From Raillietiella orientalis (lineage: Eukaryota), in the NCBI GenBank assembly GCA_036172245.1, contig JAYWIR010000010.1:1860001-1924000 (forward strand): 64,000 nucleotides of DNA, given 5' to 3'. Shown here piece by piece: positions 961 to 51,886 of this stretch; positions within the stretch are counted from its first letter, which is position 1; each line of letters opens with the position of its first letter. Both the position numbers and the translations under genes were made by a program. Under the pieces are notes generated by a model. It did not search any database, was not told the origin of the DNA, and was given only the letters and a program-made list of their open reading frames with translations.

Positions 961-1628
961 CGGACGATGATCACTTCCTTTTAACCAGAACAATTTTTGC
1001 ATGAAGTTTTTTGTTTTTCTTATCTCTTTTTCTCCCCTCCCTTCCCCACCTGCTCCCCACCCTCCTGCCCTTCTCCCTTATTCCTCTCCGTTGCCGTTGC
1101 AGACCACGTGTGCATGGCCCAAGCAGTGTTCCACTCGACCGAAATCAGTCCAACAAGTCCCATCCTCGGCGCGATCGAGCGATAATCCCGTTCTTGCAAC
1201 TCGAAGGCTTGAATCGTTCCCTCGGCCGGAGGGGGAAGCTGCGTCTCACTGACAGTAGCCATCTCGCGCCTGCGCGCCTTGGAGAGGCGACTTGCGTGTG
1301 CATCGCGCGCGCCTGGACCACCGAGTCGAACCTTACGAGTTCGAAGCTGGACAGCTTTGCGCTCGAGGCGCTTTCCGCTATGCGGTTCGCAGTGCTCGCG
1401 TAAAGGCAGCACCATCAAATCGCTCGAACAGAGGGAATCGCATGCGCACGGCCTCGGGAAGCGGCCACGCGACAGTACCGGAAGTCCAACCACGGTGACG
1501 ATGTTGCCAGATTGCCCTGGAAAGCACCAACCGACGATCACGTTGCAAGCTGGCCAACGGTCACATCGTGCGATATGGCCGTCAACGAAGCTGGGAAGTG
1601 ATTTAATCGTTTTCAAAACTCCATTCGT

Positions 1629-4600
1629 TTAGCGAGAATGATCCGAGCCGCCGTCACTCTTTTTCCGCAGATGTCCCGCAGATTGCTTGAACGTCCTGAA
1701 GGAGTGCTTGTACCGGATGTTAGGTTGCCGATCATGCGAAAGATCGGCCTCGTCTGAGGCATCTTCTGCTTTCAACTGCGTTCCGTTATCTCCGTTGGAA
1801 AGGGACGCATCCTTGAGACGAGGCGTGCTGCAGTGTTCGCTGGCTTCCTCATAAATCGGCCCTACGGCCGGCTGACTCACTATCCCCGCTTCTTCAATAT
1901 CGTCGATTGCTATCTCGTGCCTAAGAAGAAGCAACTTGCAAACGTACTTCCGAACCAAGATAGTCTGGCAAAGACGTTTCCAAGGGGAAACAGGCTGAAC
2001 AGCAACAGTACCTCCCAGGCGTGGCATACCAAGAAGTTCATGACCCCGATCGAAAGGAGAAGGACCTGAAATGGGAAAATTGGTGTGTCGTTAAACTCCA
2101 GCAAGGCATCCAGCTTCGGAATGGGAGACAGGAACATGACTGAGGCGATCAAGGCGCAACTGGTCAACCAAATCACCAGGAGCCCTCGAGAACGGATGTC
2201 ATCCCGGTTTGAACTTCCCCGACTACATACTGTTATGCCAAAACTCTTCTCTGTACGGGCTTCCCCAGCTGAAGATCAGGGCAGCAGTAGGATAAGTCCA
2301 GAAGCTGACCAACATCAGCGATCTCATCTCATAGGAGTAGACGGACGACGGCTGGCTTTCGAACCTGTGTCCACGGGAAAATTCTGTGGAAAAGTACTTT
2401 TCCCTTACCATGGCTGGCTGTAGGTATACATCCAAGAGAACACGTAGAAACATCCTTGAATCACAGCGAAGCTTATAATCGAGAGGAAAATGGACATCCT
2501 GTTCAAAAGTCTGATGGGAGGGTTTCCAAGCTTGGTGTCCGGTTTGGTTGCGCAGAGACTTGCGGACGGAATGATTACCATGAACGACGTTATCAGAACG
2601 TATTTTATATCAGATGGAGCGTATCCACTCTGTTTTTTACTGCACAGCAACGAAAAATCAGGATGCAAATCGACTTACGTGGTACACGAATAAGACTAGC
2701 AGGAATATACACATGTATATCCCAAAGCTGTACTTGATGACTTCGACAGCAGAGACATATGCGGCTTGACCTTCAGTGACAAGAGTTTTCAGGCTCTCCA
2801 GCGAGTTGTTTACTGAGGTGAAGGTTGCAGGAAGATGCATTCCAGGAGTTGTGAATAACAATCCCATCTCCGATAAATTAAGAGCTTCATAGTCATCAAG
2901 AGTACTACTACACATAGCAATACCATGTCTGCTTGGTACGGAAACATCTCGTTTTTTACTCGTGTACGGATTCTTTTTTTTTTTACCCCATTTCTTGCAA
3001 GGACTTTATCAGCTCCGTTTTCTGCCTGGGGAGCATCTTGGCGAATATTCTTCCGCGACACAAAATTTTCTTCAGCTTCTCCGCATCGTTCTCTTTCAGC
3101 AGCTGCAGCGTGTGGCCTTCCAGCGCAAATATGTAATCTTTCTTTCGGGATCGCACCAGTGAGAGTCTTTGGTCCTTCCTTCTTTCTGGAAGGAGACTCA
3201 CCGATTTACCAGGCAGCTCTTTTTTGAAAGTCAGGAGCACACGCTTGGCTGCCACCTCGCTCGGAGGAAGAATCTGCACCGCCACCGAATACACCGTTTC
3301 CTCGAAAAAGGAAGGCCTGCTCTCCTGAATCATCCAGAAAGCCGTCTCGAGATTGGATTCTGAAAAATTCGACCTCTCCGCTGCCACCTCCAAGAGTGCT
3401 TGCGCTTTCTATCTACCTGTCACCATGATCACCCTCAGGTGTTTGGGCAGGTCGGGGACCGAACATTTCATCGAATCCTGATACACCAGCATACCGATAA
3501 AATCCAAGCCTTCTGGGTGTCTCTGGTGTGCATCGCTTTTGCCGACGCCTTCGCAGTGAGCCATGGCGATCGCGCGCTTGCCTGTCCTTTGCAGCTCTTC
3601 AGAGACCCTTTCAAGGTCGTTCGGCACTGCAGATGACCAAAAGATAGGATGCCTCCAGACCGAGTCTCCCGTTTTTTTACATGACTCCGGTCTGCAGGCC
3701 TTCTTCACGAATTCCACTTCTCCTGTCAAGTAGAAATCCGTCCGGCTCCCACCGTTTCTTCCGACGAGGACACCCGTGTTTTCACTCGATCCGTAATAAA
3801 ACGTCTTGATTTGTTCCAGCTCTTCCGATCCTCTGGCAAGGACGACGGACCCATCATCTTTCACAGATATGCTCTGCACGTTTTTTCGAAATCCTCAGTA
3901 ATAATACCTGCACAGAAGTTAGGACAAAATCATTACCCATCCGACAGCGTTAAACATGCACAAGTCCCTGAAGGATCCCACTAGGCTGCCATCGGACTGG
4001 ACGATGTGATGGCACGTCGCCATGCAGGATGCGACGAGTGACTTAGCCGGAAGTAGCTTCGGACTGATTATCTCGTGACCGAGTGTTTTTCCAGATGGAA
4101 TGACTACTCCACATTCTTCATGTGTGCCCGAGGTCAGTGTTCCTGCCTTCGTTCCGTCAGCATCCCTTTATCATTAGTGTGCCTCACACTGACTGTGTTG
4201 AAGCAGATGGTATCCACGTATGCACATGAAAACAAGTGGAATGGATCGCTGCAGTGAATGCCAGATCTCTTGAGACGCCTTCGACTTAGAACCATGACGA
4301 TCCTCAGGGAAGTCAGCATAAACGGTGGCACACACCAGATGGCTACGTCCAAACAAAATAGCATGGTTAAAAAAATGGGAACCTGGAGGGAGAACAAGTT
4401 TTCCAGGTTGAAGATATCCGTCGGTCTTTTGCCTTCTTGTTGCTCCACAGGTAGGCTGAGTAGGCTATCCCTAGGACTCCGAGAATCAGGAACAAGGCGA
4501 ATGACTGTTTCAGCTGAAGGGCAAGGTCGCTACTCCTCTTCTTGCAGTGCAGCATGCACCGTATCATTTCTCCGTACTTCGTTTGGAACCCTGGCGGTCC

Positions 4601-7600
4601 GAAATGGGGAGTGGGGAGACCGCGCAAGTGGGAAAGCCATCACCAACCTGTCCTGACAACCAGAAGTTTCACCGAGGATTCGGTGCTTCGGATTTGCAGG
4701 ACGCGTGAGCCGTAGCAAAGAAGATGCAACTGGTGCAGGTTGAAATCGAACAGCAGATACTGTTCATTAGGAAGCGCAGTCTTGAAAGAAGGGCAAAAAG
4801 CGTGTTGGCATCTCTATGGTTTGTAAAGGATTACCTTAAGAACAGGATGCGTTTGTCCGTTCAGAGCTGATTCGTCGACAAACACGTCGCCTTCCAGCAA
4901 TGCTGCATCGCATGGGAGGATGTGAGAAGCGTCATTTCGAAAAAGGAGTATGTCTCCAGGCACCAGAAGATTCGAACTCAGATAAGTCTCTAAAGAGCAG
5001 CAGCAACAGTGGAACATCGAGAAGACCGCTTTGAGGTGCTTATCGTATAAAACAGATCCGATATTTCAAGAAAAGTGCAGATGCATAACGTGCAGTATAG
5101 GAGGAATAAAGTAATTTGCATTGATCTCCATGGCAAATTGTATCGTGAGCAGCTATAAATTCATTCTACACGTCGAACAAAAATACGGCGTTTCTGACAG
5201 AGCGATGCACGCATGTCGAATGGAGGTCAAAATTTATCGTGCTTTCTCTTGGTCGCATCAATGTTTAATCGATTCCTTTCACATACAAATTCGAGATTTC
5301 TTCTTCCTTGGAGCTGGACCCAGGGATTTTCGTACTGTTATTGCAACGAAACACGAAGCCAATTAGAATTCTTCTTCGTCTAGCGGATCTTCAAGAAACC
5401 CAAGAACAAGTCTTCATGCTTTTTGCAGCCCAAACATCGTCTCGGCCACAGCCAGATCAAATTGAAAATCTCGCAAACTGTCTCGGGAACAAGAAATCCA
5501 AACGGTCGAACCGAAAGGATTACCGTCAAGAGAAGGAAGAAAGAGCAGGGAGGAAGATAAAAACGGAAAATCAGATGTTGGTTGAAACATCAACGAGAAA
5601 ATGAATCGCTCGCTCGGCTGGCAATATCGGGTTTTGCAAATATCAGCTGCCACGTTCTATAACCTCGGATGGAGCATTCCCTGCGCGTTACCACCAACGG
5701 TCAGCTTTTCGAATCCGCGCACTGCAACCGCGAAAGAAGAATTCTCCACCTTTCCCGTCTCGAAGTGCACGCACGAGCTCGTCTCGCCTCGATAGATTGG
5801 CCATTTCCCGCTCTTTCTGGAAACAGATTCAACAGTAGCATCCCCCGTCAAGACACTCCGATCTCACTTTCGTCGCTTCCAGCATGGCGAAGATCACCGA
5901 CGACAGGGAGCACAGAGCTATGAGTGCCGCGAAACACCAATACTGCAAACAGATCCCCATGAAGATAGAATACGCTAGGAAGAACTGGAACGGGTTCCAT
6001 ATCTGAAAGGGATAGGCGTGTGTTAAAGGCATTGCAGCTCCAAGGCATCCGGGATTTTGCCTGCTTGAGCAGCAGACTCCAGATCGATGCACTCTTGGTC
6101 ATCAGAGTGTTGCATCCATAGTAAGCAAGTCTCTCGTTAGCTTCCTGGGTAAGCAAACCGTTTTTCATGTTGTGCATCTCGGATAAAAATAACTGGTCAG
6201 CATCCAGGCCGCTGAAACACGGAAGCCGGATTGAAAGAAGCCGTCCTCCTCTTCCCTGCTCCCACCTTATCTTTAGAAAACTGCATTTTTCCTTGCTCCA
6301 CGTGTATTTGATCTTCTTATTCCAGAAATACATGAGATTCCCATTCTTATGTATGTTTTCCACAAACATTGTTCCAGAGCTGTCCTGTTCTGGATTGATT
6401 TCTTTCTGCTACAATCTTTCGTTACCTGGAGAACGATGTAATCTGACTTTTCGAAGCAACAAGGCCTGCAAGTTAATCTAACTCTCCAGCTTGGCTTCCA
6501 GCTTAGAACCAGAAGGAGCATCCCTGCGCTCAAGATGGTGCCTCCAATGATAACAAGGTACTTCCAGAAGCATTTCTGATAAACCCAAGCGATCTAGAGT
6601 ATGAATGACAGTCCTGTGACTTTCACTTCGTGCAATTTTCTGTTCTGACTATTGCCAATAAAGGCATCGTTGCTTTATGAAATCAGCATGCATTATCACA
6701 ATTCTTGTTATTATCCCCTTTTGTCTTTGTTTTCCCATTTCAGATTGGAAGTTGGAAAGTCACCCAAGGATGTAAAAACATTTTTAACGTACATCTTCAT
6801 TTATTTCTGAAATTACCAGCTCGAGCGGTTAATAGAATGCTTTCCACCTCGACCCAGAAACGCTTGACTGCAAATCTCATACAGGATATAGGGGTTCTAG
6901 AAGGCATTGGAATTTCGAGACATATGAAACTATGGCAACAGAGTAGCTACAAAGTCGCCTATGGGGAACTTTGTTCTTCTAAGAAGTGTGCTACAAGCAG
7001 CAGCTATTTCAAAAAGAACGAAAGCTCAGCTCCTAAGATTCGATATTTACAATATTAGGCCGTTATTGTTGATGATGGCAGTGGGGATGGACTTGATTCC
7101 TAATTTCAGCGGTCCAGAGATTCTGTGAGTTCTGTTCCCAAATTGCCGAACGGGTTCAAAACAGAATGAACAGGAGGGTTGGAACAGGGTGTTCTTCCGT
7201 GTCCACTGCTTCCGTGTCTTCGAGCAGAAGACACGGAAGCAACAGTTAACGATCAGCACCAAACGAAACAGTTGTGTAGGGGAAGCAAAAGATAAGTACT
7301 CATCTGGGTCGAATTTCTGAAATTCCGAAACGGTCTCGGGAAACGTGACAGGGGAAAAGCTCCGCACGCCTCGCTTGGCCCGGGGACTGCAAGTTCCTCC
7401 GATCCCTGCTTCATGTTGACGAATAAGTCTGACCGAGCCCCACGCTCGAAGTACAGCAAGAAACGATTTTCGCCCTTTGCTTTTTCTTTTCCCTTAGGCC
7501 TGCTTGTCCCTGCCTTTCCGGAATCGCAGGACCGGCCTTCCGTGGCCACTTTCGATACACTCAGCTCGGCCGTAAAGAGCACCTAGCCCCCCCCCCCCCT

Positions 7601-7819
7601 CTTCCCTCCTCGAGGAGAAGCAGATTCCCCTTTCCCAGGGGAATCTGCTTCTCCTAAGTGCAGGGTGCGCAGTCGGCGGGAATGCGGAGCGGCACCGGAC
7701 ACCAGCGCCTCCCACCTCAGCAGTCGCCTAGCATGCAGCAAAGCAAGACTCACCATTTGCTCTGAGGTGCCCTCATTTACAATTTCCACATTAATTCCTG
7801 CGAACCGATACTTCCCCAT
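1629..7819 (-). CDS. P5B-type (ATP13A/CATP-like) P-type ATPase homolog, multi-exon, catalytic motifs degenerate
   Basis: Exon 1 7819-7754 MGKYRFAGINVEIVNEGTSEQM joins exon 2 from 6593 (IAWVYQKCFWKY...WKPSWRVRLTCRPC, P5 N-terminal domain). Downstream: RLAYYGCN, IWNPF, LLVPGDIL...LPCDAALLEGDVFVDESAL, VVRTGFQTKYGEMIR, VPP (TM4), CMATCH, IFAKMLPRQKTELIKSLQ, then C-terminal TM exons and stop at 1629. The junctions I traced keep frame; not every exon was traced. Confidence 0.9.
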
Positions 7820-24059: not shown

Positions 24060-26570
24060 TCATATGGCTAACTGATAATCATAATTTGGAGTTAAACCAA
24101 GATCATCACTATCCTCCAGCATTTCATCATCATCATCATCAATGGATTCAGGGCCAGGAGCCAAAATAAGCACTTTTGAACCTGTAATGGATGACACACA
24201 TTTGCCATTCCGATGCTGTAAGTAGTCCAGTTTGAATCTATCTGAACCAAAAGGCAAACGAGCTGAACACAGATAGCACCTGTAAAATAGTTTCTGGCCA
24301 TGGGTGCGACAATAATGGATAGACAAGCTGAGACCCAGTTGAAAACGTCGTGGACACAACTTGCAAGCAAATTCTACAAAAACATACACAGAAACAACAA
24401 AGAGAAACATACTTTTGTGCCGAACTTTCTTGAAGTGATGGACACAAGAGGGCTGTTGTTGCTGTGCGGAGATGCTGCTGGGTGGCGGCTGTTGCTGTTG
24501 CAAGCACATACTAGTAGACTGCTGCTGCTGCTGCGAATGCATACCAGCTGGTTGCTGCTGTTGCTGCTGTGAACATGCATTAGTAAGCTGCTGTTGCGAG
24601 CGTACAGTGACAGTACTCTCTGAAACAAAAAAGTGGCATCAAGAGTTAAGATGGCAAAAGATGTTAATTACCTGGAGGAATGGCAGTAGATGCCAATGCA
24701 GTTGCATCCATTTCTGGATCAAGAATAGCGAAAAATGGCCCTTCATATGGAGAATGTATCTGAGATCCTTCAGATTCTGTTGTTTTAGCAGAGACAGGTA
24801 CAAAGGCTGGACGCATGCCAGCATATGGGTGAGGAACCATTTGGATTAGCTGCATCTCTTGAGGTCCATCTGCAGTAGATTACATATAATAATTATCAAG
24901 AGCATTTGCAACCTACTAGACATCCTCTTGGAAACTTCTCTGGCAGTGGGGACTTCATATGGATCCACTAAAGGCATTGTCATATATTGGACAGAGCCAG
25001 CATCTCCTGAGATTCCAGGCTCTAATATATGCACACTCTCAGGAAAATGTGGAGGCAAAGGATTCTCTAAACTGAGATGGTTGCGTTTAAGTAAATCATC
25101 TACAATAGCACCATGTTGGCGCCGATGTGCCAAATAATGGTCTAATAAAACATCTTTCTGAAAGAACTCAAACAGAATGCCACAAAGGGGGCATCTTTGC
25201 TGGAAAAAGTGTAACATGTCAAAGAGAACATTTTCCATAGGGAGCTCCTCAACATGATTAGTAAGTATGGGCAACATTTCCCATATGCTTTTTGCTTTAC
25301 TTGTGCGTGGTGCTGGAGCGGTAGTCTGCATATCACCATTAGATGTAACAACTGCAAGAAGTTGCACTTTGGCAGATGAAATTGGAAGTTCAGTTTTGAT
25401 ATGTCCTGTCTCACAAGTAGATAAGGAAGTAGGCAACTGCATGTTCAAGTTTGGTGATGGATTTTGGGAGATGGATTCCTGAGATGATGATATAGTCACA
25501 GAACTAATAGGTTCCAAAGTAGAAATGGGAGCTGTGTGCACAGTGGCCAAAGAGAATGGTTTATAAATACTGGCAGCTGACTGCATCTCATATGAATTAG
25601 TGCATAAATGGGATGTGTGGGAGCTTATTGGAGATTGCAGAACACATGAGCTAGAAGCCAGCAACTCTGAAGATTCCTGCAGACAAGAGTTGGTAGATAA
25701 TAATGGTGCACTTGAGGTTCTAGATAGGTGACTTGATGCAATTGTGGATAGGTTCATAGTAGTATTTCCAGACTGGAAACTTGAGGAAAGTGAAGAGCAA
25801 CTACTCACTGAGGAAGCAATTGTTGTTACAGCCAAGAAAGATTCTGGAGTGTGATCTGGAGGAGGTTGCTTGATTGTTACTAAGGAAGGTGCACTGCTTG
25901 AGTCTACTATGAGAGGTGAGAGAGAATTAGCATTTCCCGTATTTGGAAGTTGAGCATTCTGATCAGGCACAAGAGCATCATTTACATTCATGAACTGTGA
26001 GGTGCTGACCACTGGAAGAGGACTGTTCGAGGTCATAGGGCTAGTGGATTGGGAATATTCCTCAGGAGATGACATCAACACCTCCAATGATCGAGTTTCT
26101 TGGACGGGAGCATTGCTTGCATCAGTAAACACAGAATGTGAATCTTTCTGCAATGCACGTTCATAGGGCATACATCTGTCTTTCTCAATCATTGATAATT
26201 GACTTTTTTCACACTGACTTTTCTCAACTTTAGTAGAATCAGGTATCATGGGAGATGGGGTAATCTTTTTGGAGACTGTAGAGTAAATGGGCGATGGAGA
26301 TATTTCAACAGGAAACTCAATCCCATCAGCCTGCAATCTTTTACGGGTCTCCACTTCTCTATAAAGGCGAACGTTCTGCTTTGATGCACTACGTGCTGTA
26401 GCTAATAGCTCACATTTATCACAAGCACAGTTACGAAATGGACAAATTAATTTGTGATCTTTTAAGGGTTGCTCAATACCATGAATGCGGCAATTGCGAC
26501 ATTTCTGAATCTGTCTACAGCGAGGAGCAGATTTATTGGCCTCCTGCACAGTTCCCTCTTTGCAAGACAT
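24060..26570 (-). CDS. DM-domain (Doublesex/MAB-3) transcription factor with C2H2 zinc fingers and polyQ
   Basis: N-terminal CRNCRIHGIEQPLKDHKLICPFRNCACDKC is a DM domain. It is followed by a Ser-rich linker and finger CPLC...HYLAH. Introns 24916-24870, 24671-24620 and probably 24412-24374 (in-frame, 39 nt) join it to a Q-rich exon and fingers CKLC...HYCRTH and CYLC...; stop at 24060. Confidence 0.88.
24452..24600 (-). repeat. Coding CAG/CAA repeat blocks (polyQ) in ~33-36-nt degenerate units
   Basis: ACSQQQQQQPAG / MHSQQQQQSTS / MCLQQQQPPPS / SISAQQQQPS. Confidence 0.8.
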
Positions 26571-29500
26571 TTTCCTAGAAAGTTGAAAACACAGTCTGCA
26601 ATCACCAAACAGTGTATCAGTATGAAATCAAACACTCCCATGCACAATAAGCTCTCAAAGATACCCCAAAGTCCACATGCGATTAGGTGACCCAGAAGTC
26701 TCAAAATAATGAAAGATTAGAAAAAAAATTAGTTACATTTATCAGCAAATGCATGGTATTAGAAGTTTCAAATACTATTGCAGTAAAAAGTTATTCCTGG
26801 GAATGAGTACACAAAAAATAAGAAAACAGAGCATCAGATGGGAATGCCATGCAGCTTAAATGCATTTATCTGGATGATGACCCATAAAACAAACACATAA
26901 GCACATAAAAGCAGAATGCTAAAACACACACAATAAATAGAAAATCACCACAACTGGGCACAAGAAAACAATGAAAAGAAGATAAACACAACTAAACCTA
27001 ACTGGTTAATCACATTTCACTTGCAGCTAACAGAAAGAGCATGGTAAACTCATTTTCATTTATTTCATCATGATACCACTTCCATCCAAAAGAAATGGCA
27101 GAGTATTACAAACATAATACTGTTTCTGTCCCATGTAAGACAATGGGTGCACAATCTCAAATTTGATATATTGTGAATGCTGAGCAAATGCTTTAATTAA
27201 TACAACTGGTGACATAATGACACAAATATTTGCATAATCTCTTTTAAACAGTGGCCTCCAACATAGTTTAAATCAATAGCAATTATCTTATACTCTCCAC
27301 AAAACAGTTAAGCCCAGGATGAAGCATAATTCTTAAATTCCTAGATAAACTGAAAGAAAAAATGAAGATCGTACAGAAAGATGTACACATAGGATATAAA
27401 CGGTACAATTATCAGTTTTATTATTAGATTATAACAAATCTAAAAACATCTGAAAGCAATACAAGCATTAGAACTTTTGGACAGCTGATTCCATTTTCTG
27501 CCATAATGTAAGTTACCTTTACAAAATGAGAACTTGCAAAAATAATGATGATAACAAAATGATATATTTATCAACAAAAATGCAAAGAAGCATCATAAAT
27601 TTTAATAATGCTGAATAACTAACCGAAGATCCAGAACATTCAGTAAAGAGATGAATATCTCCTGTACACGGTAAAATAGTATGAGGAAGGAAAATAGGGA
27701 AAGAACATCAAAACTATAAAACATGAATTTGGATAGATGTGAAGAGAAATGCAACCCATGTGCAAAATCACCAAAGCTATTAAATGATAAATCTGTTGCA
27801 TTCCTAAAACTCATGAATTAAATTCATAGCATAAATTTCAACCTAGATTTAAAATGTATATTTACTTAAATGGTGTAGGCAAAAATACATTTCAATAAAG
27901 TTCTCAAACACCAAGTCAACAATAAAGCAATTAAAAAAAGAACAAAAATTAATAAAAATCTATTACTACATTCTAATGACCAATGAAGAAATGATTCTAA
28001 TTATTTTCAGATGGAAGATGGCACAAGATTAAAAACAAACCTTGCAAGATAATTTGACCATAACAATTTTCAAGTAATTAAGTACCAGGCAAAGAAAAAC
28101 TTAAAATCTATTTAATCCATAAATATGCCCCACTGAAAAACAAAGAATTCAATTTAGGGATTCTTATCACATGGAGTAAGCTGCTAATTGTTCAAAGAAA
28201 TTAAGACTTGTTGGAATTAAGACTAAATTAATGCACTTGTTTGGATCCTGATGTCTACACAAATATGAACCTTCATCACACAATAAAGGCATACCTTTAG
28301 ACATACTCAATAATTATAGAACAGTAACTAACAAAATATAAATGAAAACTGCATTAATGCAGTTTTCTTATTTAGAAAACTGGGGAAAACCATGAAGAAA
28401 TCATTGCAGAATTCAAACTATATCATTGAATAGAACATGAAAAGCATATAAATTAAAAATAGAACAAATGATGGCACATTAAATTTACATATGCAGCACA
28501 AAACTTTTTTAATACTCACCAACTGAATAAACAATGGTTAGTTTATCTTTCAATCAATTTTAACCAATGATAATAAAAGAGGAAAACCAATGCTTACGGC
28601 TTTCAAGTTAGCATCATAATAATCTGATACCTCTATTAAATCATAATATGCAGTAATTAGCAAAAAATTTTTTCTGCTTAACAGATGTAAGGTTTCAGAT
28701 ATTTGTTGACAAGAAAAATTACCAAAAAGCAGAATATGGAAGAAATGACAGCTTCTATTAATATGTACCTTCATTTCTACACATTCGGTGCAACTACACC
28801 ATTATGGAAATATCAAGCTTTCTACTATTCTTTATCTTTGTTGGATCCTAAATTAATAAGGTGCATGCTTTCTCACTTCTTCTTCAGTATCAACTTTACG
28901 TAGCTCATGATAAAATAATCTATAGTTTATGAAGTATGATATATCTAGGAAAAAATAATTTTGCCTCTTAACAAAAAATCATAATCCATCTTAGTTAACA
29001 TTAAAATGCTGTCCCATGATTCTCATTTTGGAAACAAAATGAGAACACTCACAAAATGTTACTTGATCAAATAGAATTTTTCTGTGTGATCAAAAAATCT
29101 CTCGTTTTGTGATCAAACAGATCTGCTTCAAAAATGATCAATTTGCGAAAATTAGTTATTATTATTCCATAATCAACCATAGGTACAGTAAATCTAATTA
29201 TAATTTGATTTACTTAATCACTAAATTTTTGATACAAGATCTTAAATTGAGAATACAAGTGTCTCATTTACAATTTAATGCCCCCAAAATCTTACATAAA
29301 AACTGTTGCAGCATCAACTAATGCAGCACAGTTAAATTAACTGAAAAAGCAAGTTTCACAAACCGATATAAAAAATAAAGCCGATATAAAAAATAAAGCG
29401 CGCAAAATAAAATAATTGTATGAGATGCACAGCTCCAGATACCAATTGAACAAATAATTCCGCTAAGCCCAATCTTATTCTAATCGTAAACGTCATTAAC

Positions 29501-34416: not shown

Positions 34417-37400
34417 CTAGACAACAGAAAGATCTTCTTCTGAAGGTGATCTAGGAAGCTTTGATAGAGTAAGAGCAAGAAGTTCTTTCTTCTTGCGTGT
34501 CTCAATTACCTGATTTTTCATATAAGAATCTACCAGCTGCATATCAAGTACCTCAATCTCTTGGAGTGTGTGTTGCATTTTTTTCAGTTGAGCATTCAGT
34601 AATGTTTGAACACATTGAACTTGGCGGGCTACATCCTTCAAACCATCTTGAGCACTTTGTGGTTGTCGAGGCCACATTAGGCAAGGAGCAAAAATCACAG
34701 CAATTGCTGTGACATTCATCCGGTTATGATTTTCATACATGGCCACACAAGATAGATGATAAAGAAGTCTTTCTATCAAATGGTAGTGGGCTTGGGGAAG
34801 AAGTTTGATTAATGCCAAAATAGCTGACAGACGCTCTCTTTCATCAGGATCATCAGATGCATGTAAGAATTCAGCATAAGCTCTTGAAGTAAACAGGGGA
34901 TCGGGCAGGGCACGCAGAAATGACTTTAGCAATGTAGTAAGGGCATGTATGGGATAAGATGTGAGATCCAACTGAGGATGGGTATTCCATCTGAGAGTCA
35001 AATGACGAACCAAGGAGGCTGGAGCGGATTTTCTGTATAGACCCTCTGTGCATAGACCTCGTTGCTCAATGTTTTCAATCAAATGACTTACAGGAGTAGG
35101 AATGGTCACATCAGAAGGTAGTGACAATTCCAAAGAAATGCCAAGTATATGGCCTTTCATTAAGTCAATTCTTTGGAGATCACCATTAGCACATGTAGGG
35201 GGGGCATTGGTGACACATCGTTTATGACATGTAAGTCCACAGTGTTCGCACACATGGGCACGTTCCAGCAACCATAGCCATGAACCACACACTTCACAAG
35301 CTGTGGGCAGAGCTGCCAGTTGTGGTGTCATTTTGTGTTTAACAGGTGATGGTGTGCATGGTTGGTTCAAGGGAGGGGAAACATGAGACTTCTCAAAGGA
35401 ATACCTCCGTCTAAACTGCTTTAACATGTCTTGGAAGATGGGAGCAATATCATTCAGACAGGTTCCCTGAGGTTTCAAAAATGTTTCCAGCTGACGCCAC
35501 AAATCAATCTGCAACGTGGACATTTCATTGGACGCACTCCTTAGTATCACGATATTTTTCTTGAGATCACACAAAGCTTTGCATAAAGGAAGAGTAGACT
35601 GAACATTGGAGCTTTCCAACCTGCATATCTGAAAGGAAAACTTTCCATCCTCCTCCCGTCAAGCTAACCTGAATAGCCAAGAATTCTTCCAGATGACTCA
35701 GTTCCTCAGCACCCTTAAAAATATAATTATCGAGATTCAATGTGTCAACGTCAGCAGTATTAGGTTTGAGGCAAGGAACTGAAGCAACTGTGGAAGCACA
35801 ACGCTGGTGGAAAACACGTAGACAAATGCGGCACTGTCGTGCAGGACCAAATATTGAAGGTAGAACTTTGTTGCAGCCAGCACACACTTCTCCACGTTGT
35901 GGGCGTACTGTCCGTTCCAGCTGGTGAGAATTTGATGTACTTTGAGTTAGCGGAGAAGTGTGCTGAGGAAAGGGTAAAGATCCCTCTTCATTATATTTTG
36001 GCAACCGAAAATCCTTGGGTGATACCATCGACGGTTCATGGATCTCGGCACTAAAAGGCCAATGATGCATAAAATCAGTGGTATCCTACCTCAGATAGCT
36101 TCTTTGCTCTCGCATTTTTTGGTATCGCCGTCTTGCCAGAACACCACGACCGAATGCTTGCAATCCAACGACCGCATTCTGCAACCGAAGATACCACTGG
36201 CGCACACGATGTCCACGCCAATGTTTCTGAATGTTTGTTGCCGCTTGATGGAGTCGTTGTCTAATGCTTGATGTCCGCTGCTGAGCAAGAAAAGTTCGCG
36301 CGTGCGTCTGCAGGCCGAGAACCAACTTCCTGAGTCGGAGGAAACGGCGTCTCGCAAGCCGAGCCCGAGTCCACCGCTGTATGTTGACAATAGTGTACAT
36401 GAGGGTGTAGTGAAGATAACGATCTAACGCAGCGCGGCAGTCGGTACGCAAGAATACCCGTGTACATCCCAGCTGGTAGTCCTTTTCGGATGTCATGCCG
36501 ATACGCTGCAGAAGTTCGTTCACAGAGTTCGGATCACCCTGCGACCCTGGTGGGAAAAGCACGCGATATGCCTGGACGAACTGTTGATACGTGAGGCGAA
36601 CAGGATACCCTGCTCGTCTAACGCGGACCGTTTCCAAAGTGCCGGTGTAGCGAAGCTGACGTCGGACGGTGGTTTCGTCCCACAGAAAGGGCATCTTGTC
36701 TGCGTTGGACTTGATGCACCGTAGGAACATGGGAGAAGTGGAGCTCAGGGTCCGCAGCAGGTTGCGAAGCGATGCTTGGAACTGTGAAGTCACTGTCCTC
36801 AGGCGGGTCCTGCGGTGACCGGAAAATGGCGGCAATGACGAGCAGTCGGAGATTCTCATCATCTTGGTTCGACTGGAAAGCGATCTGATAACAGCCAGGA
36901 AGTGAGCGTGAGCACACAGAAACCGAGCGGCCTACCCACCGTGGGCTCGTTGGGGAGAAATCGGCCGACCCCTGCCTGGTGCTTTTCGATGCCTGGTGTG
37001 ATGCCTTCGTGTTGCAAAACACTGCCCAGGCCATGAAGAAAGCGCGCAAGACGGACCAGCGCCATGCGGCTTGCGGGTCCCCTCTAGCGAGCTGGCTCAC
37101 AAGGGGGACGCTGCTGGCTTTCAATGTTTCCAGTACTCCCGGACTTATCAGGTCGAGGTTCTTCTCACGGAAGTCTTCTATCTGGAACCCCGGCCGTCCT
37201 GGCCCAAGATGCGCTGGGAACGATGACCTCTTACCTCGTACTTGACGTCGCCTGCGTAGTGGCGGACGATGAAGACAGATTCGTGGGGGGGCGGCGGAGC
37301 GTGGTTCGGATGACCGCGGTGCGAGTCGTGAAACTTCTTGAGGAGAGTCTGATACGTGGCTCCCGGCATGCTGCAAGAAGAGCACGCAACGGTCGGGGGG

Positions 37401-40400
37401 AAGCAGTTCGACGCGGGGAGCGCGTTCCGCTTACTGACTCTGGTCGTCCAGAAGACATAGAAGGCCACGTGGTCGATTCTCCAACAGTTCCAGACACGAA
37501 GCGTTATCAGTGAAGGACACTTCCTGCCAGCGCAGTCCTTCGCTGACGTACTCTCGCTGCTCCGCGCGGAATACGTGCTCGTTAAAGAACGCGTGAAGGT
37601 GCTCATTGGCATAGTTGATGCATAGCTGCTCCAGCCCGTTACGGTGAAAATTCTCGAAACCGAAAATGTCCAGAACGCCGACGAAAAGCTGCGCGGATTC
37701 TGACGTCGCTCCTCGTATGTGCAAGGCCGCGTTCAGACGCAACACGATCCAGTCGAAAAGTCCGGCGTACAGACTCTTCGCAAGGGCATCGCGCGCGGAG
37801 CAGGCCTCGGACATACGGTACCCGATGACCAGCTGCTCGCCTCCTCCGGTGCGGGCTTTCTTTTGGATAAGGGCGGCTTCCATCGACTCGTAGGACAACC
37901 CAAGCAGCTCCGCTATCTTTCGAACCGTCTCCTTGTCGGAGACAGCGACGGATTCGTCATGACAAAGTGCCACCGCCTTCCTCAGTTCGAAGTCCACGTT
38001 TCCGAGGAGCAGCACCGCCGACAAGACTCCGAAAAGGGCCTTCTGCGTGTTGGCGGAGAAGCCGACCAGCTCCATGGACTGGCGCAGGCGACGCATCTCT
38101 AGGCGTTCGTCCGCATCTTTCGGAGCGTCCAGCTCGTTCTGCAGACAGAACATCAGCAACGGTGAGAAGGGAAAAGCCTCAAGATAACCTGATTGAGATA
38201 ACGATACTGTGATGAGGGCAGAAGGTGCAGCGATGGCCATTCGTAAGCATCCGCCAACAGGTAGTAGAAGACATGGTAATTGCGTTCGTTGCTACCTTGG
38301 TGACAAACTCGCGATTTCTCCAACAGGTATTTGTGTACCTTAGCCCTGAAGAGTAAAAATCGCGTAGGACGTTTCTCTTTTGATTTGGATGCTAAAAAAA
38401 ATACTCTAATAGATACTTTTTGATATGACTCAAGATATCGTCCGAGCAACGAACAGTAACTGCGTGCAGAACTGTGTGGTTAAGCAATCATCCTTCCCAA
38501 CCCGTAGCAGAAAGCAAGATGAAAAATTATGCATTCGAGTTTAATTTTTGGAGAGATTCCACGAACGGCTTCTGTTAGGACCAGAGAATCCTTTAATCAC
38601 ACCTTAAGCAATTTGCTTCATGGTTTGATCGATCTTTGTAAAATCGACCTCTCCAAACACCACTGCCAAAGTCCACTAACAGTTTCTTCAAAAAATCAAT
38701 GTGACTCCAGGCACACAGACACGCATCCAACGATAAACCTGTTGGAACAACGTAGCATGTTTCCCTCTTGGTGACGGAACTGTTTCAGGAATTATTTTTT
38801 CCGATGGTTTCGATAATGTCACCTGTGGATGTTGCATCTTCGAACACACACACACACACACACAAAGCATACAGAAATCCTATGTGGATAGGAAAACCCC
38901 TCATTCAAGGTTGAGAAATGACTGCTGGAACCCAATGACACGGTAACAGCCAGCAAGACTAAAAGCGTTTTTCTTCTAGCAGTCATGCTTTTAGGCAGAC
39001 CCCAAGTAACACCGCTGGGCAGACAGCTAAAACCACTGCTTCGTATACTGACATGAAGGGAAGAAACCAGTGTTTTACCAACTCTGAGATGCTGGACGCC
39101 ACTGGTTTCCACAAGACGCATGAAAGTTCAAGGGATATTTCCAGAATTGGGATTGTCGTGAGATGAAAACGAGAAACACCCGACTGGATTGAGAATTTTC
39201 CACTTGCCGCAGTCGAAGAATCGCGGACCCCCACTGGGGAGGATTCGAACGAAAATTCGGCATCCAGGATACACCATTCTGTTGGAGTTCAAAAGAGGGT
39301 CATGACAGAAATCACCACGGAAGACTCAGATTCACCGACATCGAAAATGTCTCCTCAGTCACACTTTACCTACCCACAGACCATTCCATTTTCTCGATAG
39401 TTCACCTGGATGAATTTTCCGAAACGGCTGGAGTTGTTGTTGTGTAGGGTCTTTGCATTTCCAAAGGCCTAGACAAAAGTTGGTTAATCAGTGTGACAAA
39501 AAAGCCCCCTTTAAATTGTACGATTACGTCTGAGGTGGACTTAACTTTCCCGATCTATCGAAATTCGGGAGAAATAACGGAACCACTAACAAGGATTCCC
39601 TAATCAACTTAAACGTCAATACCGAAAAAAAAAAAAAAATTTTCTTCATTTTCTTAGTGAAAGATTTGTTGCATTACTCATCAAGGAAGACACTCCATCC
39701 GCCAAACCGGAAACGGGTGGAAAAGCACAGAATAGAACACACCGTTCGCACTTTTTAGACGATGCAGGAAAAAAAGCAACAAATCGAAGCTCAGGGAATC
39801 TCAGTGACCACTCGTCGATTCGTGACTTCTTGAGAACTCGCTTTTTGAAAGACCGCACACGGCAAGGAAGAAAAGCTATTGGAATCTCCATATGTACTAT
39901 GAGTTTTAAAAGATTTTCGCGGATCACCGTAGAGATGCAAGTACTGTAGCTCCATGCTTCCTCCAAAGAGTAATTTACCTTGCCAGTGTCGATTACTTGG
40001 CAGAGATACCCAAACATCATCTCGTGTTTGAGACATTTTGAGCATGAAAAGGCAAAACGGTGGGACGTAACAGACCTCATCGAAGGAAACCCACAGTAAC
40101 GTCCCAAATTTCTTCTAAGAACAAACTCTCACTTGCTGCAACTGATTCAACCTCGTGACTGCCCTTGTACGAACTGAAAACTGGAAATTTCTCCCCCCCC
40201 ACCTCAAAGTGGCTACGGAAGTCGCAAGACAAAGAAATTAAATGTTACAAAATGGCCCATAGCATGATATACCTGCCATCCTCTTGTCTTGCAGTGCATG
40301 GCCTACAGTCTTTGGTTTGATATTCAGATTACTTCCAGGACCAAATTAGAACGAAAGCTGATTCTCGAATGCCGTGGAGTTTCGAAACAAAGAAAGAAAT

Positions 40401-43400
40401 TGAAAGAGTATGGCAGAGCATCCCATAAACTGGCATCCTCATATGCGACCTTCCTTTGTTCTTTGCACACTTCTTCAGAAAGAGCTTCTGAATCAACTCG
40501 AGGAGAATACGATGTGTTCTTCAGCTGGGCAGAAGAAAATTTCGCGTTGATTTCACCAACGCAGGGGTTTGAAGAATACATCAAACTGGTGGACAAGGCG
40601 GCTGCACCGACCCCATGCACGAAGAAAACGCGCCCAAGCATCCGCTGGCATGCAAATTTCATTTCGTCCTCTGGCAATGTAATTGATCTCTTTGTCGGAA
40701 ACCATAAACTGCAACCAAGGGTCTCCCTTTCTGAAGAAGATAACGCTACTTCACTCGGACTTTCATGTCCGAGATGACCTATCTCGAAGACGCAGTCGAT
40801 AACTATCCTCGACAGGTTCAAGTTCTGCAATGGGACGTAAGGAGGGGCGATCCTCGACTTGAGTCTTGTTCTGGAGTATGAATTTCGTCGATCCCATCTG
40901 TTTTTGCCTTCACAAACATTGTGGCGTTTGTCTGTATTTTCAACACAAAATGAGAAGAAGGAAAAAAAGAAAAAAAAAAAACAAGCCCACCCGGTTCTCC
41001 AGCTTATGGAAAACGCCCCAGCTGCAGCACCCTTCGAAATAAAAGAATACGTAGGCAACTTGAGTCATGGACCCAATCTGGGACGGAGAACTCGAGAGAA
41101 CCAAAGACAAACTCGGAACTGACGAAAGTGCCATATCGAAAAAAGCAATGGATCACAAAAGTGCGCACCACCACAGTCCTGCGATGCCCGTTTCGTTTTC
41201 GCTTCGCCTCGCTGGATCTTCAGGGAATCCAGAAAACTGGGAGAAAAAAGAAAAACCGCTGCCACGGACAAGGTCACCAGCATGGATTTCTTATAGAACC
41301 ATTCGTTACACGAGAAGGAAGAGCTGTTCCGAACAGTTCGCCTCAAAAATCAACCCATCACCGCGCGAAGTCGACAACGAAACCACCCTGTAAACTGTCA
41401 GAACATCCGTCAGCATAAAAAGGGAGTAACAAAAACCAACCTGAAAATCTGCTGCTGCTGACGCCGTGCCCCCCCCCCCCCCCCCCCCCCAATACCCAAA
41501 TCAAACAAACTATTGAAACACATGATTGCCGTAGGAAAGCGATCCTCGGAAGAAATGCGCCTGAAGTTGCTCCTGACCATCCCACGCTTCTTCCAGTTTC
41601 ACAACACGACCGCCCACTCATCCATTCTACGAGGCGCATTCCAAAAGTAGGAGCCGATCACATAGAAAGGAAGAACGAATAAGGGAAACAAAAACGTGTT
41701 AGTGGTTCGGAACACATACATCCCCCTGCCATTTTTCTACGTAATCACCATTTTTTCCCCAAACACTTTTGATACCGTGGAACACGCTTTTCGAAACCCT
41801 CGGTGTAAACGTCACTCGGCGGGACTTTAAGGTGGGCGATCAAAAAGCTCCCATTCGAATTTCCGAATTGTCTGGAATGTGACGACGGCAGTGTGTCGGA
41901 CCAAAAGGGTGCTCTTTTGGAGGACCTTATGGAGCCAGGAACAACCATCTACTGTGCGCAAGTCTACTGTGTAGAAACACTTTCAAAGCTGCGGCGTGCC
42001 ATTCGGAACCGACGACGTGGGATGCTGAGAGATCAGGAAGTGTTCTTCTCCTTCACGACAACGCGCACATGCTGTCCCCACATCCCGGACAATTCGGAAA
42101 TTTAAAGGGGAACTTTTGATCATCCACATTACAGTCCTGCCCACTGACTACCACGTCTTCCTGCGCCTCAAGAAGTGGCTCAACGATTCGAGGGGGAAAG
42201 AGAGGAGTTGAAAACCGCAGTGCTGCTGAACCGACTGAACTCCCAGGCGGCGGAATTTCATGCAGACGGTTCCAAAAAACTTCTTCCGCGGTATCAAAAG
42301 TGTTTGGAAAAAAAAAATGGTGACCATGTAGAAAAATGACATGGGGATGTACGTGTTTCGAACCACCAATACATTTCTGTTTCCCTTATTTGTTCTTTCT
42401 TTAGATCCGATTCGCCCTTACTTTTGAGATGCGCCTCGCACAACCTTGCACAAATGTGTGACCGCTCGAAATCGAGAGGAAAAAATGCACATTTTCCGAT
42501 TTGCGGCACGAAAAAAAACAAACAAACAAAAACAAAAAGAACGTAAACAAGTACCCACAAATGTCATTCCTCCTCACCACTGCCTCTAGAATGCATGGAC
42601 TTATGAGATTGCACACCTTTTCCATTTTTTGTTAGTTTTGGAACATAAGGTTCCCACATGAGGCCAGAATAGGCATCCATGCAATACTCATAAAGATGAG
42701 TCACTCAGCATTACGACAACACAAGAAACATCCGGAGAGAAGTTTTCGGATTTGCGGTTTTTCACGAAGTTTTCAAGAACCGAAGAGTTCTCTCAGGATT
42801 GAACTCTTCAAGATGGAAGATATCCTAAGAGGAGACCACCCTATGAACCCAGGAAGGGCTCCAGAGGAGGGAGTCCCGTTCCTCTCACGCCTGGGGAGAG
42901 ATCGTCGAAGAGAACCCTCCACCTTGGTTGTCTCTGAAGGGAATCTCCTCCTCCTTATTCTCTTTGGAGGGACCCTGGAAGGTGGTGGAGCTCCATTGTT
43001 TCTTCTACGAAGGGAACCCCGAAAGGAGCCGCTCCTAGAATTCCTTCTCCGGAAAGAACCCGCAGGGGAACCGGTCCCTGTTCCTCCTTTAAAAAGAAAG
43101 GCGAAGGAACGCTTTCAAATTTTCTCTGAAGGGTCCTCCCCAAAGGGAGCAGCACGCTTCTTGCACTCTGGAGAGAAGGATCATCAAGCTACTAGCTCCA
43201 TGGTACGACCCGCTCCTTTACACAACTGGAGAGGAATCCCCAAGGGAATCGGATCCCTTGATTCAGTTCTTGGAAGGATCCCGGAGGATCAACTCCCAAT
43301 CCCAGCCACTCATCGGGGGCATCCAGTTTTAACCGCCACCGGTGCCGCACCCGAATGAATAAAGGCGAAGCGGCGTCATCTTGCAGGAGGAACTGGAACC

Positions 43401-44971
43401 CACGACTCGCACCCATCTCTCGCAGTCGATCCTCCCCCCAAGGGGATTCGAACCCGCGACGCCTGGTGCCACGCGCGGAGACCGCAGCCACACGGCCACC
43501 AACGCGGCGGTAATTCCGCGGGAGAACCACACGAGGTTCACGCGGCAAGTTCGTTCCGACCGACCCCATCTCCAGTCTTCCGACAACTATTAGTAGATAG
43601 AGTAGTAACCGAATCAAGGGAATCGAAGCTTGCTGCATGAGTGCTAAACGACCAGAGCGAACCACGGAACGCAACACTTGAGGACACACGATCCGAAGCC
43701 TCTTCTATCCTTCGGGATACATCACCTCCGGGTAAACACACAAGAACACCGGGAAAGAGAACGTAGCTGTTTCATCACATCTTTTTATAAGAGAAGACAC
43801 AGGAAGCGATGACCCAACAGACCACGCTCACGCCCCAGAAACCAGTCATCTCTTCTTTGTTTCCACCTCTTCCTCCACAGAAATCGCTGCGGAATGAGGA
43901 GAGAAAGCAAAGGCTACGTGCGCTTCACACATGTGCCTACGCAGTTTCCGGATAGTCACTGCTGACGTCAGTGGAAACGTTAGCTGCGAATCGCGGCCCC
44001 TTTGCTCCCAATTCATCCCAAATCAGATCATTTTATTATTATTAAATCTATCAAGCACCCATGTGCCTGGCAACGCGGAGGGCAACATGGCTGCAGTTGA
44101 AAAACCCTCGCACACGGAAGCAGCAGACACTCGGAAGACGAGTTCACGGAACGATGCCGAATCCACCTACCTCCAGCACAGGACCAGCTCCCAGAACAAT
44201 GCGTTCGATTCCAGAACCATGGGTTCCCTTGGGACTGGAAGCAGTCATATGGTGCAAGAGAAAGTTGGTACTCTCTGTTTTCCCTGATCCCGATTCTCCG
44301 CTGATCACGATGCACTGGTGGCGGCGTTCGTCGATCATCGAATGGTACACATAGTCCGCCAGGGCAAAGATGTGTGGGGGCAACTCTCCCAACGATCGCC
44401 CTTGGTACAGCTTGAGAAACTTGGGATTGTAAATGGGGAGGAACCGGAATGGGTTGATGGCGATGAGGATGGTGCCAATGTAAGTGTAAATGCATCCAGC
44501 TTCGAAACGCTGCCTCAGGCTGAACGACAACGACTCTTCAGACAATTCTGGTAGCTGGCACAAGTCCGGGTACGGTAGCTCGGGGAGAGGAGACGGCAGA
44601 AGGCGCCACAAGGGTTCTGGGAGGAGATCCTTCAAAGGATTCGACTCCTCTCTTTGCTTCCTCAGACAGAAGTAGTAGGAAGCGCATCGTTCGCATGCCG
44701 AAGGCCAGACTAGCTGAAGAGCTGCGGGAGTCTCAAAGTCCGCCAGCCGCCTCTCCTTGCAAATTTCCCCATCGGCAGTCCGGATGACTTCGAAGAACTC
44801 GTACCTCTGTGTACGGTCAAGTTGCAACTTTTGCACGATCCGATCAATCACGTCGCGGGTGGAGCAGTTCTTGATCACTTGGATGGTCGTCAACGATGGA
44901 GCGTCGTCAAGTCCACTGGTATCCACATCCAGAGAGTACATCACGACGCGCTGCCGCTCTGAAAAAGACAT
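34417..44971 (-). CDS. MYO9: Unconventional myosin class IX (RA domain, motor, IQ motifs, two C1 domains, RhoGAP); hum-7/MYO9 ortholog
   Basis: Exon 1 44971-44171: RA domain, [16 protein letters not shown]-loop GESGSGKT. Exon 2 39468-39374: [19 protein letters not shown]. Further: [25 protein letters not shown], class-IX loop-2 insert [25 protein letters not shown] motifs ([23 protein letters not shown]), two C1 domains, RhoGAP with GLYRKS arginine finger and NRMN...IFAP. Confidence 0.96.
40328..40777 (+). CDS. Possible terminal exon of a gene nested antisense in myosin IX intron 1
   Basis: ttcag acceptor at 40327 followed by a ~149-codon open frame with protein-like composition ([23 protein letters not shown]...); no homology recognised. 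Confidence 0.25.
   Translation: MTSRTKLERKLILECRGVSKQRKKLKEYGRASHKLASSYATFLCSLHTSSERASESTRGEYDVFFSWAEENFALISPTQGFEEYIKLVDKAAAPTPCTKKTRPSIRWHANFISSSGNVIDLFVGNHKLQPRVSLSEEDNATSLGLSCPR
41700..42370 (+). mobile_element. Degenerate mariner (Tc1/mariner) transposase remnant plus inverted copy of its 3' end
   Basis: 41893-42340 (+) gives fragments [53 protein letters not shown] and [15 protein letters not shown], typical of the mariner catalytic/C-terminal region, with frameshifts. 41700-41790 is a diverged reverse complement of 42285-42368. Confidence 0.85.
42720..43510 (-). mobile_element. tRNA-derived SINE-like element, copy 2 (best-preserved head)
   Basis: Minus strand: gcgttggTGGCCGTGTGGctgcggtctccgcgcgtggcaccaggcgtcgcgGGTTCGAATCCcc (Pol III A and B boxes), then a ~700-bp body homologous to 56468-56995 and 350-880. 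Confidence 0.75.
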
Positions 44972-44973
44972 AG

Positions 44974-44980
44974 CTGAAAA
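44974..44980 (-). promoter_or_regulatory. 3' splice/trans-splice acceptor (TTTTCAG) 2 nt upstream of the myosin IX ATG
   Basis: Minus strand reads ...ctgTTTTCAG ct ATG TCT, matching the nematode acceptor consensus. Cis versus SL trans-splicing cannot be decided from sequence. Confidence 0.5.
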
Positions 44981-48140: not shown

Positions 48141-48370
48141 TTCCTGCCGACTGCAGAACGTGGACCGTCGCTGTCGCTTCCGCTTCCACTTCGGATCCAG
48201 TGGTCTCAGAGCGACCGGAAAGCACTCCAACAAGCATTTTCGAGCGCGCCTTGTTTGCAGACACCAACTTGTTCGAGTGTTCGAGAGGCCGTTTCCACAC
48301 ACGAGTCACGTGAGAATTCGAGTGGAGACGGTTGCTACTTTCGTAGAATGGCAATTCTATCTGTATACAT
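48141..48370 (+). repeat. Dispersed ~225-bp repeat, copy A
   Basis: Nearly identical direct copy at 51664-51886 (ttcctgc.gactgcagaacg...agaatggcaattctat.tgtatacat). Confidence 0.95.
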
Positions 48371-51663: not shown

Positions 51664-51886
51664 TTCCTGCTGACTGCAGAACGTCGCTGTCGCTTCCGCT
51701 TCCGCTTCGGCTCCAGTGGTCTCAGAGCGACCGGAAAGCACTCCAACAAGCATTTTCGAGCGTGCCTTGTTCGCAGACACCAACTTGTTCGAGTGTTCGA
51801 GAGGCCGTTTCCACACACGAGTCACGTGAGAATTCGAGTGGAGACGGTTGCTACTTTCGTAGAATGGCAATTCTATTTGTATACAT
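51664..51886 (+). repeat. Dispersed ~225-bp repeat, copy B
   Basis: Matches 48141-48370 except for one short indel and a few substitutions. Confidence 0.95.

Follow-up and report, generated by a model that had tools for sequence, protein, structure and literature searches.

A predicted P5B ATPase descendant in Raillietiella orientalis that appears unable to run the pump cycle: a candidate pseudoenzyme

Introduction

P-type ATPases are defined by the motif DKTGT (PMC13466520, PMC10763278), and P5B members carry in addition PPALP, which has been described as a P5B signature and as a substrate-site motif (PMC10654040, PMC5856429). The consequences of losing the phosphorylation site have been reported for laboratory mutants, in which an Asp to Asn replacement at this site abolishes autophosphorylation (ATP13A2 D508N and Ypk9p D781N; PMC5837089). 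According to the same report ATP13A2 D508N is still targeted correctly, and a second study found that it still affects polyubiquitination and alpha-synuclein externalisation, which its authors ascribe to a scaffolding function (PMC7962109). Here we describe a P5B-like gene on the minus strand (7819..1629) of a 64,000-nucleotide stretch of DNA from Raillietiella orientalis (GenBank assembly GCA_036172245.1, contig JAYWIR010000010.1, positions 1,860,001 to 1,924,000), which we refer to as the window and whose numbering is used throughout. The predicted protein carries the identical Asp to Asn change at the phospho-acceptor. The laboratory mutants differ from an active pump by a single residue, whereas the gene described here is natural and has lost further motifs together with half of the substrate pocket.

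Two natural systems can be set beside this gene. In some alveolate guanylate cyclases (P4GC), the flippase modules carry degenerate DKTGT/DGET motifs, as described for Cryptosporidium, P4GC-beta, gregarines and Tetrahymena (PMC13466520). As that source presents them, these modules are, like the gene here, natural P-type bodies that have kept the fold after replacement of both the phosphorylated Asp and the dephosphorylating Glu; they differ in their P4 type, in their occurrence in protists and in being joined to a cyclase from which the function comes, whereas the gene here is P5B-type, stand-alone and from an animal. The second system is Caenorhabditis elegans CATP-1, for which a pump-independent function has been reported (PMC11631496, citing Ruaud and Bessereau 2007). 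It is likewise a P-type body that acts without pumping, yet it retains its full set of catalytic motifs and is a member of the Na/K-pump group. A literature search covering listings and abstracts returned no stand-alone dead P5B, and the P4GC flippase modules were the nearest precedent that it yielded. Because P-type ATPases are usually recognised by DKTGT, dead members can be missed systematically; at least one published inventory, for instance, drops sequences that lack this motif (PMC10763278).

Results

The predicted product of the gene is a full-length, very diverged P5B derivative, a descent on which Pfam, structure matches, homolog scores and a full-length family profile agree. Exon 2 (6426..6593) encodes the P5-specific N-terminal hairpin, matches the Pfam family P5-ATPase (PF12409) with 50.3 bits against a cut-off of 22.7, and aligns to ATP13A2 residues 56-90. 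Exons 3 and 4 (6266..6384 and 6061..6211) match Cation_ATPase_N with 32.5 bits and exon 7 (4835..4989) matches E1-E2_ATPase with 32.1 bits; the P- and N-domain exons gave no Pfam match at E <= 1. Among solved structures, exons 2 and 10 matched human ATP13A2 best, followed by the yeast P5B Ypk9 and then by P5A pumps. For comparison at full length we fetched 122 P5B homologs and built a family hidden Markov model (HMM) from 60 non-redundant full-length P5Bs. The predicted protein scored about 366 bits against the best of the 122 homologs, was about equidistant from crustacean, mollusc and vertebrate P5B proteins, and reached an identity of only 27 to 28% to P5B homologs. Its score with the family HMM was 543 bits, covering HMM positions 16-1134, which bears out the original prediction of a full-length product and makes it collinear with P5B ATPases. 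The homologs themselves scored a median of 1725 and a minimum of 764 bits, the lowest scores belonging to the shortest (654-1268 aa) or to garbled sequences. One homolog record, P0016, has a garbled C-terminal half.

The alignment also recovers the fold, with collinear A, P and N domains and about ten transmembrane (TM) helices. Hydrophobic peaks share columns with active P5Bs at the hairpin of the N-terminal domain (NTD), at M2-M7, and at M9 and M10 (exon 19, 2012..2184); those of M1 and of M8 (exon 18, 2231..2364) fall below the cut-off. The full-length domain order (N-terminal P5 hairpin, A, M1-M10, P, N) is that of human ATP13A2 (PARK9) and ATP13A3-5; C. elegans CATP-5/6/7 can be likened to the gene by family membership only. 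In atlas look-ups, the hinge and N-domain exons resembled generic P-type ATPase hinge and N-domain clusters, which we take as a lead only; they also pointed to a cluster of 71 members for which Platyhelminthes is the one phylum on record, a hint about taxonomy alone. A word-indexed protein search with the N-domain open reading frame and exon 7, covering longer proteins only, returned no match. Similarly, an exhaustive representative search with exon 2 alone returned no close ortholog among 44 matches, which were mostly short N-terminal fragments with a best identity of 41 to 51%.

Motifs were compared in a 61-row alignment of the predicted protein with 60 active P5Bs, and their coordinates were taken by hand from the exon table and verified against the sequence. 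All seven altered motifs read from the DNA in the original prediction were recovered in this alignment. In exon 7, TGES of the A domain reads NGQT (4861..4850), in columns with at least 95% conservation across the 60 active P5Bs. Exon 10 (4194..4382) covers M4 and the first part of the P domain; here PPALP reads PPFML (4328..4314), and CFDKTGTLT begins as CFNT and is completed as AGTLT in exon 11 (3937..4146), beyond a 47-nt GT-AG intron that lies exactly where it had been placed (4193..4147). The phospho-acceptor Asp is thus Asn, with the codon AAC at 4199..4197. The best match of exon 10 in the PDB, 7n74_A, is an ATP13A2 chain that itself carries CFN at this place. Further along, GDPLD reads GSFRD in exon 11 (3978..3964), and the N-domain motif KGxPE reads TGEVE in exon 12 (3681..3873; motif at 3726..3712), which replaces the ATP-binding Lys. 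MVTGDN reads MVTESN across a splice junction: exon 13 (3417..3626), which runs from the N domain into the P domain, ends with MVT and the first base of the next codon (3426..3417), and exon 14 (3202..3359) supplies the remainder (3359..3352). Finally, the hinge motif GDGAND reads SSTLDD (2909..2892) in exon 16 (2679..2928), which encodes the hinge and M5. The TGDN and GDGxND motifs coordinate Mg2+/phosphate.

At every site that marks a functional P-type pump, namely DKTGT, TGES, TGDN, GDGxND and the Lys of KGxPE, the predicted protein therefore departs from the requirement, and these replacements, together with that of PPALP, set it apart from animal P5Bs. What it has in common with them are LVPGD and PCDA in exon 7, VRTGF in the A-domain exon 8 (4648..4780), MATCH in exon 11, and FA.M.P.QK, conserved Lys included, in exon 15 (2987..3141), all of which had been named as persisting and all of which we found. 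The broader statement that every catalytic motif had been lost is right for the seven altered motifs and goes slightly too far for single residues, as G449, T450, T452, T651, K745 and D768 are still there. Catalytic death of the predicted P5B-like protein is nonetheless a safe inference, because the Asp to Asn change kills autophosphorylation and the motifs of dephosphorylation, of Mg/ATP and of the hinge have disappeared as well. The DKTGT Asp is truly missing from none of the 122 animal P5B homologs that we fetched. A prawn ATP13A2-like record, P0077, seemed to be without DKTGT and PPALP and was rejected as a dead pump, since the unrelated residues between its DK and TGT are a retained intron in the prediction.

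The divergence extends well beyond the catalytic motifs. Among the family-invariant columns, which we defined by a conservation of at least 95% across the 60 active P5Bs, the predicted protein keeps 114 of 214 (53%) and changes 100; when each active P5B was left out in turn, it kept at least 91.6% (median 98.9%). On the N-terminal side the columns kept were 6 of 8 in the NTD, 4 of 5 before M1, 25 of 38 in the A domain and 8 of 14 in M1-M2, and elsewhere 18 of 33 in the N domain, 11 of 23 in P1 and 24 of 51 in P2. The lowest shares were those of M5-M10 (12/27) and M3-M4 (6/15). Taken together, the NTD, pre-M1 and A-domain regions keep 35 of 51 invariant columns versus 79 of 163 in the rest (p = 0.015). 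In a quick maximum-likelihood tree, the end branch of the predicted protein has a length of 4.14 substitutions per site, about 19 times the median of 0.22, and attaches at an unresolved base; long-branch effects make this position meaningless, so that no parent P5B clade can be named. We also considered whether catalysis had been specifically targeted by the loss. Counted by hand, the losses amount to about 10 among 15 core catalytic residues and about 90 among the 199 others, a contrast too weak to support such a claim.

One of the regions manifesting substantial change was the substrate pocket. Spermine is contacted in ATP13A2 by W251, D254, D463, D960, F963 and D967 (PMC8564547), and we mapped these residues through non-human vertebrate ATP13A2 rows of the alignment (marsupial, bird, sturgeon and frog). 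The equivalents of D463 in M4 and of D960, the first M6 Asp, are kept, and that of F963 is Tyr. The equivalents of W251 and D254, which are the polyamine-entry Trp and Asp of M2 (exon 5, 5868..6002, encoding M1-M2), are Gly and Leu, and that of D967, the second M6 Asp (exon 17, 2409..2629, encoding M6-M7), is Thr. At the lipid sites, the LBS1 Lys and two of the three LBS2 Arg are recognisable, and LBS3 is not. The picture of a pump with its catalytic motifs alone knocked out thus appears too narrow, because the whole protein sits on a branch some 19 times the median length and because half of the pocket is lost.

These observations bear on the possibility that the predicted protein is an ATP-independent carrier or channel, whose TM domain passively conducts or binds polyamines or cations and whose dead headpiece serves as a gate or anchor. 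The hydrophobic segments at most P5B TM positions (all except M1 and M8) would suit such a role, as would the retention of two of the four acidic spermine-coordinating residues and the Tyr in place of the M6 Phe, but the substrate-site signature has been replaced by PPFML, the M2 Trp, M2 Asp and second M6 Asp have become Gly, Leu and Thr, and M3-M4 and M5-M10 have the lowest invariant shares of any region. In addition, we know of no P-type ATPase that is a natural channel without a toxin, which we count against this explanation. We consider a passive carrier or channel unlikely, and a weaker alternative than the role of scaffold or regulator that we favour for this P5B descendant.

To examine the integrity of the gene, we rebuilt its model independently from the minus strand between 8100 and 1400, with exon ends located by script. 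The model comprises 20 exons with a spliced coding sequence of 3381 nt (1126 aa), which starts with the ATG at 7819 and has the terminal TAA (1631..1629) as its sole stop. The other two frames of the spliced sequence contain 65 and 38 stops, and a stop-free frame of 1126 codons can therefore not be a chance product. Seventeen of the 19 introns fall between 41 and 63 nt, the others being intron 1 (1160 nt), which follows the 22 codons of exon 1 (7754..7819), and intron 6 (760 nt), which follows exon 6 (5750..5816). Seventeen introns are GT-AG; intron 4 (6060..6003, after exon 4) and intron 9 (4432..4383, after the M3-encoding exon 9, 4433..4590) are GC-AG, and both start with GCAAAA, which corresponds to the GTAAAA donors of introns 12 and 15 with T changed to C. 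Consequently 36 of 38 splice dinucleotides are canonical, and all 19 introns have usable splice sites, GC being the sole donor variant accepted by spliceosomes. Frequent use of GC donors by this genome, or weakened sites, may be the source of the two exceptions. The claim of an intact frame and intact splice sites is accordingly borne out for the frame, which has no internal stop or frameshift over the 20 exons, and needs amending for the donors of introns 4 and 9.

Several features of the junctions suggest that the introns are real. Read-through is precluded for 16 of the 19 introns, which would shift the frame or introduce a stop, and introns 3, 12 and 14 are stop-free multiples of three. 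Compared with the family consensus, exon 1 aligns to the N-terminal part and leaves no gap at its junction, and 12 of the 19 junctions are free of alignment gaps within 7 residues; the gaps at the remaining seven sit in loops that are variable across the family. The 41-nt intron 2 (6425..6385), which joins exon 3 seamlessly, and both GC-AG introns connect residues that directly match the consensus. Such seamless junctions argue that the introns were not invented to hide lesions. The least certain junction is that of the last intron (2011..1965; 47 nt, GT-AG), which was picked among alternatives for continued homology; without it, translation would read through to a stop at 1910, and with it exon 20 (1629..1964) encodes the C-terminal tail and the junction shows no gap relative to the family consensus. 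A polyadenylation-signal variant, ATTAAA (1602..1607, minus strand), lies 22 nt past the stop and is weak evidence alone. In intron 1, at about 7575-7660 on the minus strand, a short palindrome has a stretch of about 12 G behind it; this may be a small inserted element.

To ask whether this frame could have survived neutral drift, we simulated the coding sequence under a K80 model (kappa 2, no indels, 400 replicates). The amount of drift to be explained was taken from the invariant columns with a residue in the model, of which 98 of 212 are changed; these changes need at least 135 nucleotide steps, with two or three steps at 34 sites, and set a floor on the time for which constraint has been off at those sites. 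They imply a divergence of about 0.28 substitutions per site. Neutral drift of this size changed 44% of residues and added a mean of 25 stops, and no simulation was stop-free at 0.1 substitutions per site or more (0 of 400); even at 0.05 per site only 0.25% remained so. Indels would have brought frameshifts on top of these stops, and no frameshift was seen in the 3.4-kb coding sequence. Furthermore, the replacements at invariant sites are conservative (mean BLOSUM62 -0.30, versus -0.70 +/- 0.14 under neutrality, a value matched in 8 of 2000 simulations), and retention is higher for Gly and Pro than for the other residues at these sites (30/42 versus 84/172, p = 0.0097, hand counts). The GC content of third codon positions is 59.7%, compared with 47.5% in the short introns. 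As an internal control we used the neighbouring myosin-IX-type gene (34417-45073, minus strand), which scores 218 bits over one motor exon with P-loop and switch-II intact; this ordinary conservation suggests that the decay is specific to the P5B-like gene. Taken together, the open frame when compared with simulation, the usable splice sites, the TM hydrophobicity, and the pattern of Gly/Pro retention and conservative replacement make it look as if selection kept the frame and fold of the predicted protein after catalysis had been lost.

The same results weigh on the explanation that the locus is an unprocessed pseudogene, a duplicated P5B drifting without a role, its frame held open by luck or by the choice of splice sites. 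A pseudogene would account for the loss of the catalytic motifs and of 100 of 214 invariant columns, the very long branch, the P- and N-domain exons without a Pfam match and the two GC donors, and it would sit well with the fact that no ortholog was found and that the gene is known from genomic sequence alone. However, divergence of the size implied here would have destroyed a freely drifting frame, and neither the absence of frameshifts, nor tolerated GC donors as the only departure from canonical splice dinucleotides, nor seamless junctions, nor conservative replacements and retained Gly and Pro would be expected of such a locus. We therefore regard a pseudogene as very unlikely and continue to favour a selected protein-coding gene.

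That the gene is a still-active pump which we have mis-modelled, and whose DKTGT and other motifs are hidden by a sequencing error or would return with a different splice form or alternative exon, is hardly credible: although the model was derived from genomic sequence and introns 1 and 6 are long enough to hide exons, no alternative donor gives Asp-Lys-Thr and no splice alternative restores DKTG, the Asn codon falls within exon 10 by 3 nt and in frame with M4, both long introns are flanked by seamless junctions, the alterations affect seven separate motifs spread over six exons, with two nucleotides replaced in several cases, and tblastn with three active P5Bs found no second copy of any P5B region in the 64-kb window.

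The remainder of the window contains other genes and repeats. The myosin-IX-type gene has long exons that encode RA, myosin motor, IQ, two C1 and RhoGAP domains. A 593-codon open frame at 24846-26627 (minus strand) carries a DM DNA-binding domain and is DMRT-like (Pfam, 46 bits), and the frame neighbouring it, at 24060-24638, is rich in Gln runs. A 73-nt direct repeat (885-957 and 43433-43505, 79% identity) resembles the T-arm end of a tRNA and may be a tRNA-derived short interspersed nuclear element; arms related to it pair 43271-43329 with 56493-56551 and 42981-43031 with 56554-56604. A second direct repeat, of 224 nt, occurs at 48151-48374 and 51667-51890 with 95% identity, its copies 3.5 kb apart. 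GC content ranges from 29% to 56% in 2-kb windows over 1-64000, the gene-rich parts lying near 45 to 56%, and a search of the whole window with Rfam families gave 0 matches at threshold.

Discussion

We consider it likely that the locus is a selected protein-coding gene whose product descends from an ATP13A2-type polyamine P5B and is unable to run the pump cycle. As judged from its predicted sequence, the protein should be filed as a P5B-derived pseudoenzyme and not as a P5B pump, because the functional hallmarks of P-type and P5B pumps are missing from it and those of P5B descent and fold are present. A number of points weigh against this interpretation. Even the best-kept domains retain just 66 to 80% of their invariant columns. 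At an assumed GC-AG share of 1%, the probability of two or more such introns among 19 is 0.015, and the GC donors of introns 4 and 9 may mark the onset of splice-site decay. Homology or frame alone backs exon 1, intron 14 and the last intron, and expression of the gene, known as it is from genomic DNA, is predicted. The argument for selection is built on one sequence and supposes a similar duration of drift for the changed invariant sites and for the remaining gene, and a dead paralog that had long been selected and was recently silenced would look the same. No ortholog was found that would show the dead state to be conserved across species.

The following mechanism is consistent with these results. 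Loss of the acceptor Asp, the TGES Glu, the Asp of TGD and GDGAND, and the N-domain Lys would mean that no aspartyl phosphate is formed or hydrolysed, and in the absence of this intermediate the protein would be locked out of E1P/E2P cycling; its binding of Mg-ATP is probably poor. With PPALP and half of the pocket gone, no occlusion and no active transport of polyamines would be expected. What is left would be a polytopic membrane protein that has an N-terminal hairpin domain of the P5 type and, on the cytoplasmic side, a headpiece still shaped like that of a pump, and such a protein may work as a non-enzymatic membrane protein. The role that we prefer is that of an endo-lysosomal scaffold or regulator, acting through the best-kept parts, the lipid-facing N-terminal domain and the surface of the A domain. 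We favour this role because the NTD and A domain are the best kept and because dead ATP13A2 keeps its targeting and scaffolding effects; taken by itself, this step is a tentative hypothesis to which we would give somewhat less than even chances.

If so, an animal lineage may have converted a lysosomal polyamine pump into a stand-alone, non-enzymatic scaffold, sensor or regulator, a conversion that we propose with corresponding reserve. Possible targets of such a protein would include active P5B pumps or endo-lysosomal sorting. Should this reading prove true, it would provide the first natural "pseudo-P5B". Transport-independent scaffolding by ATP13A2, in humans a Parkinson-disease gene, is under discussion (PMC7962109), and the gene described here would then be a natural experiment that parts these debated functions from transport. 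In particular, a natural protein with the body of the pump but without its engine would reveal which surfaces are needed for transport-independent functions, and the order in which catalysis, the substrate pocket and the lipid sites were lost would be open to study in this gene.

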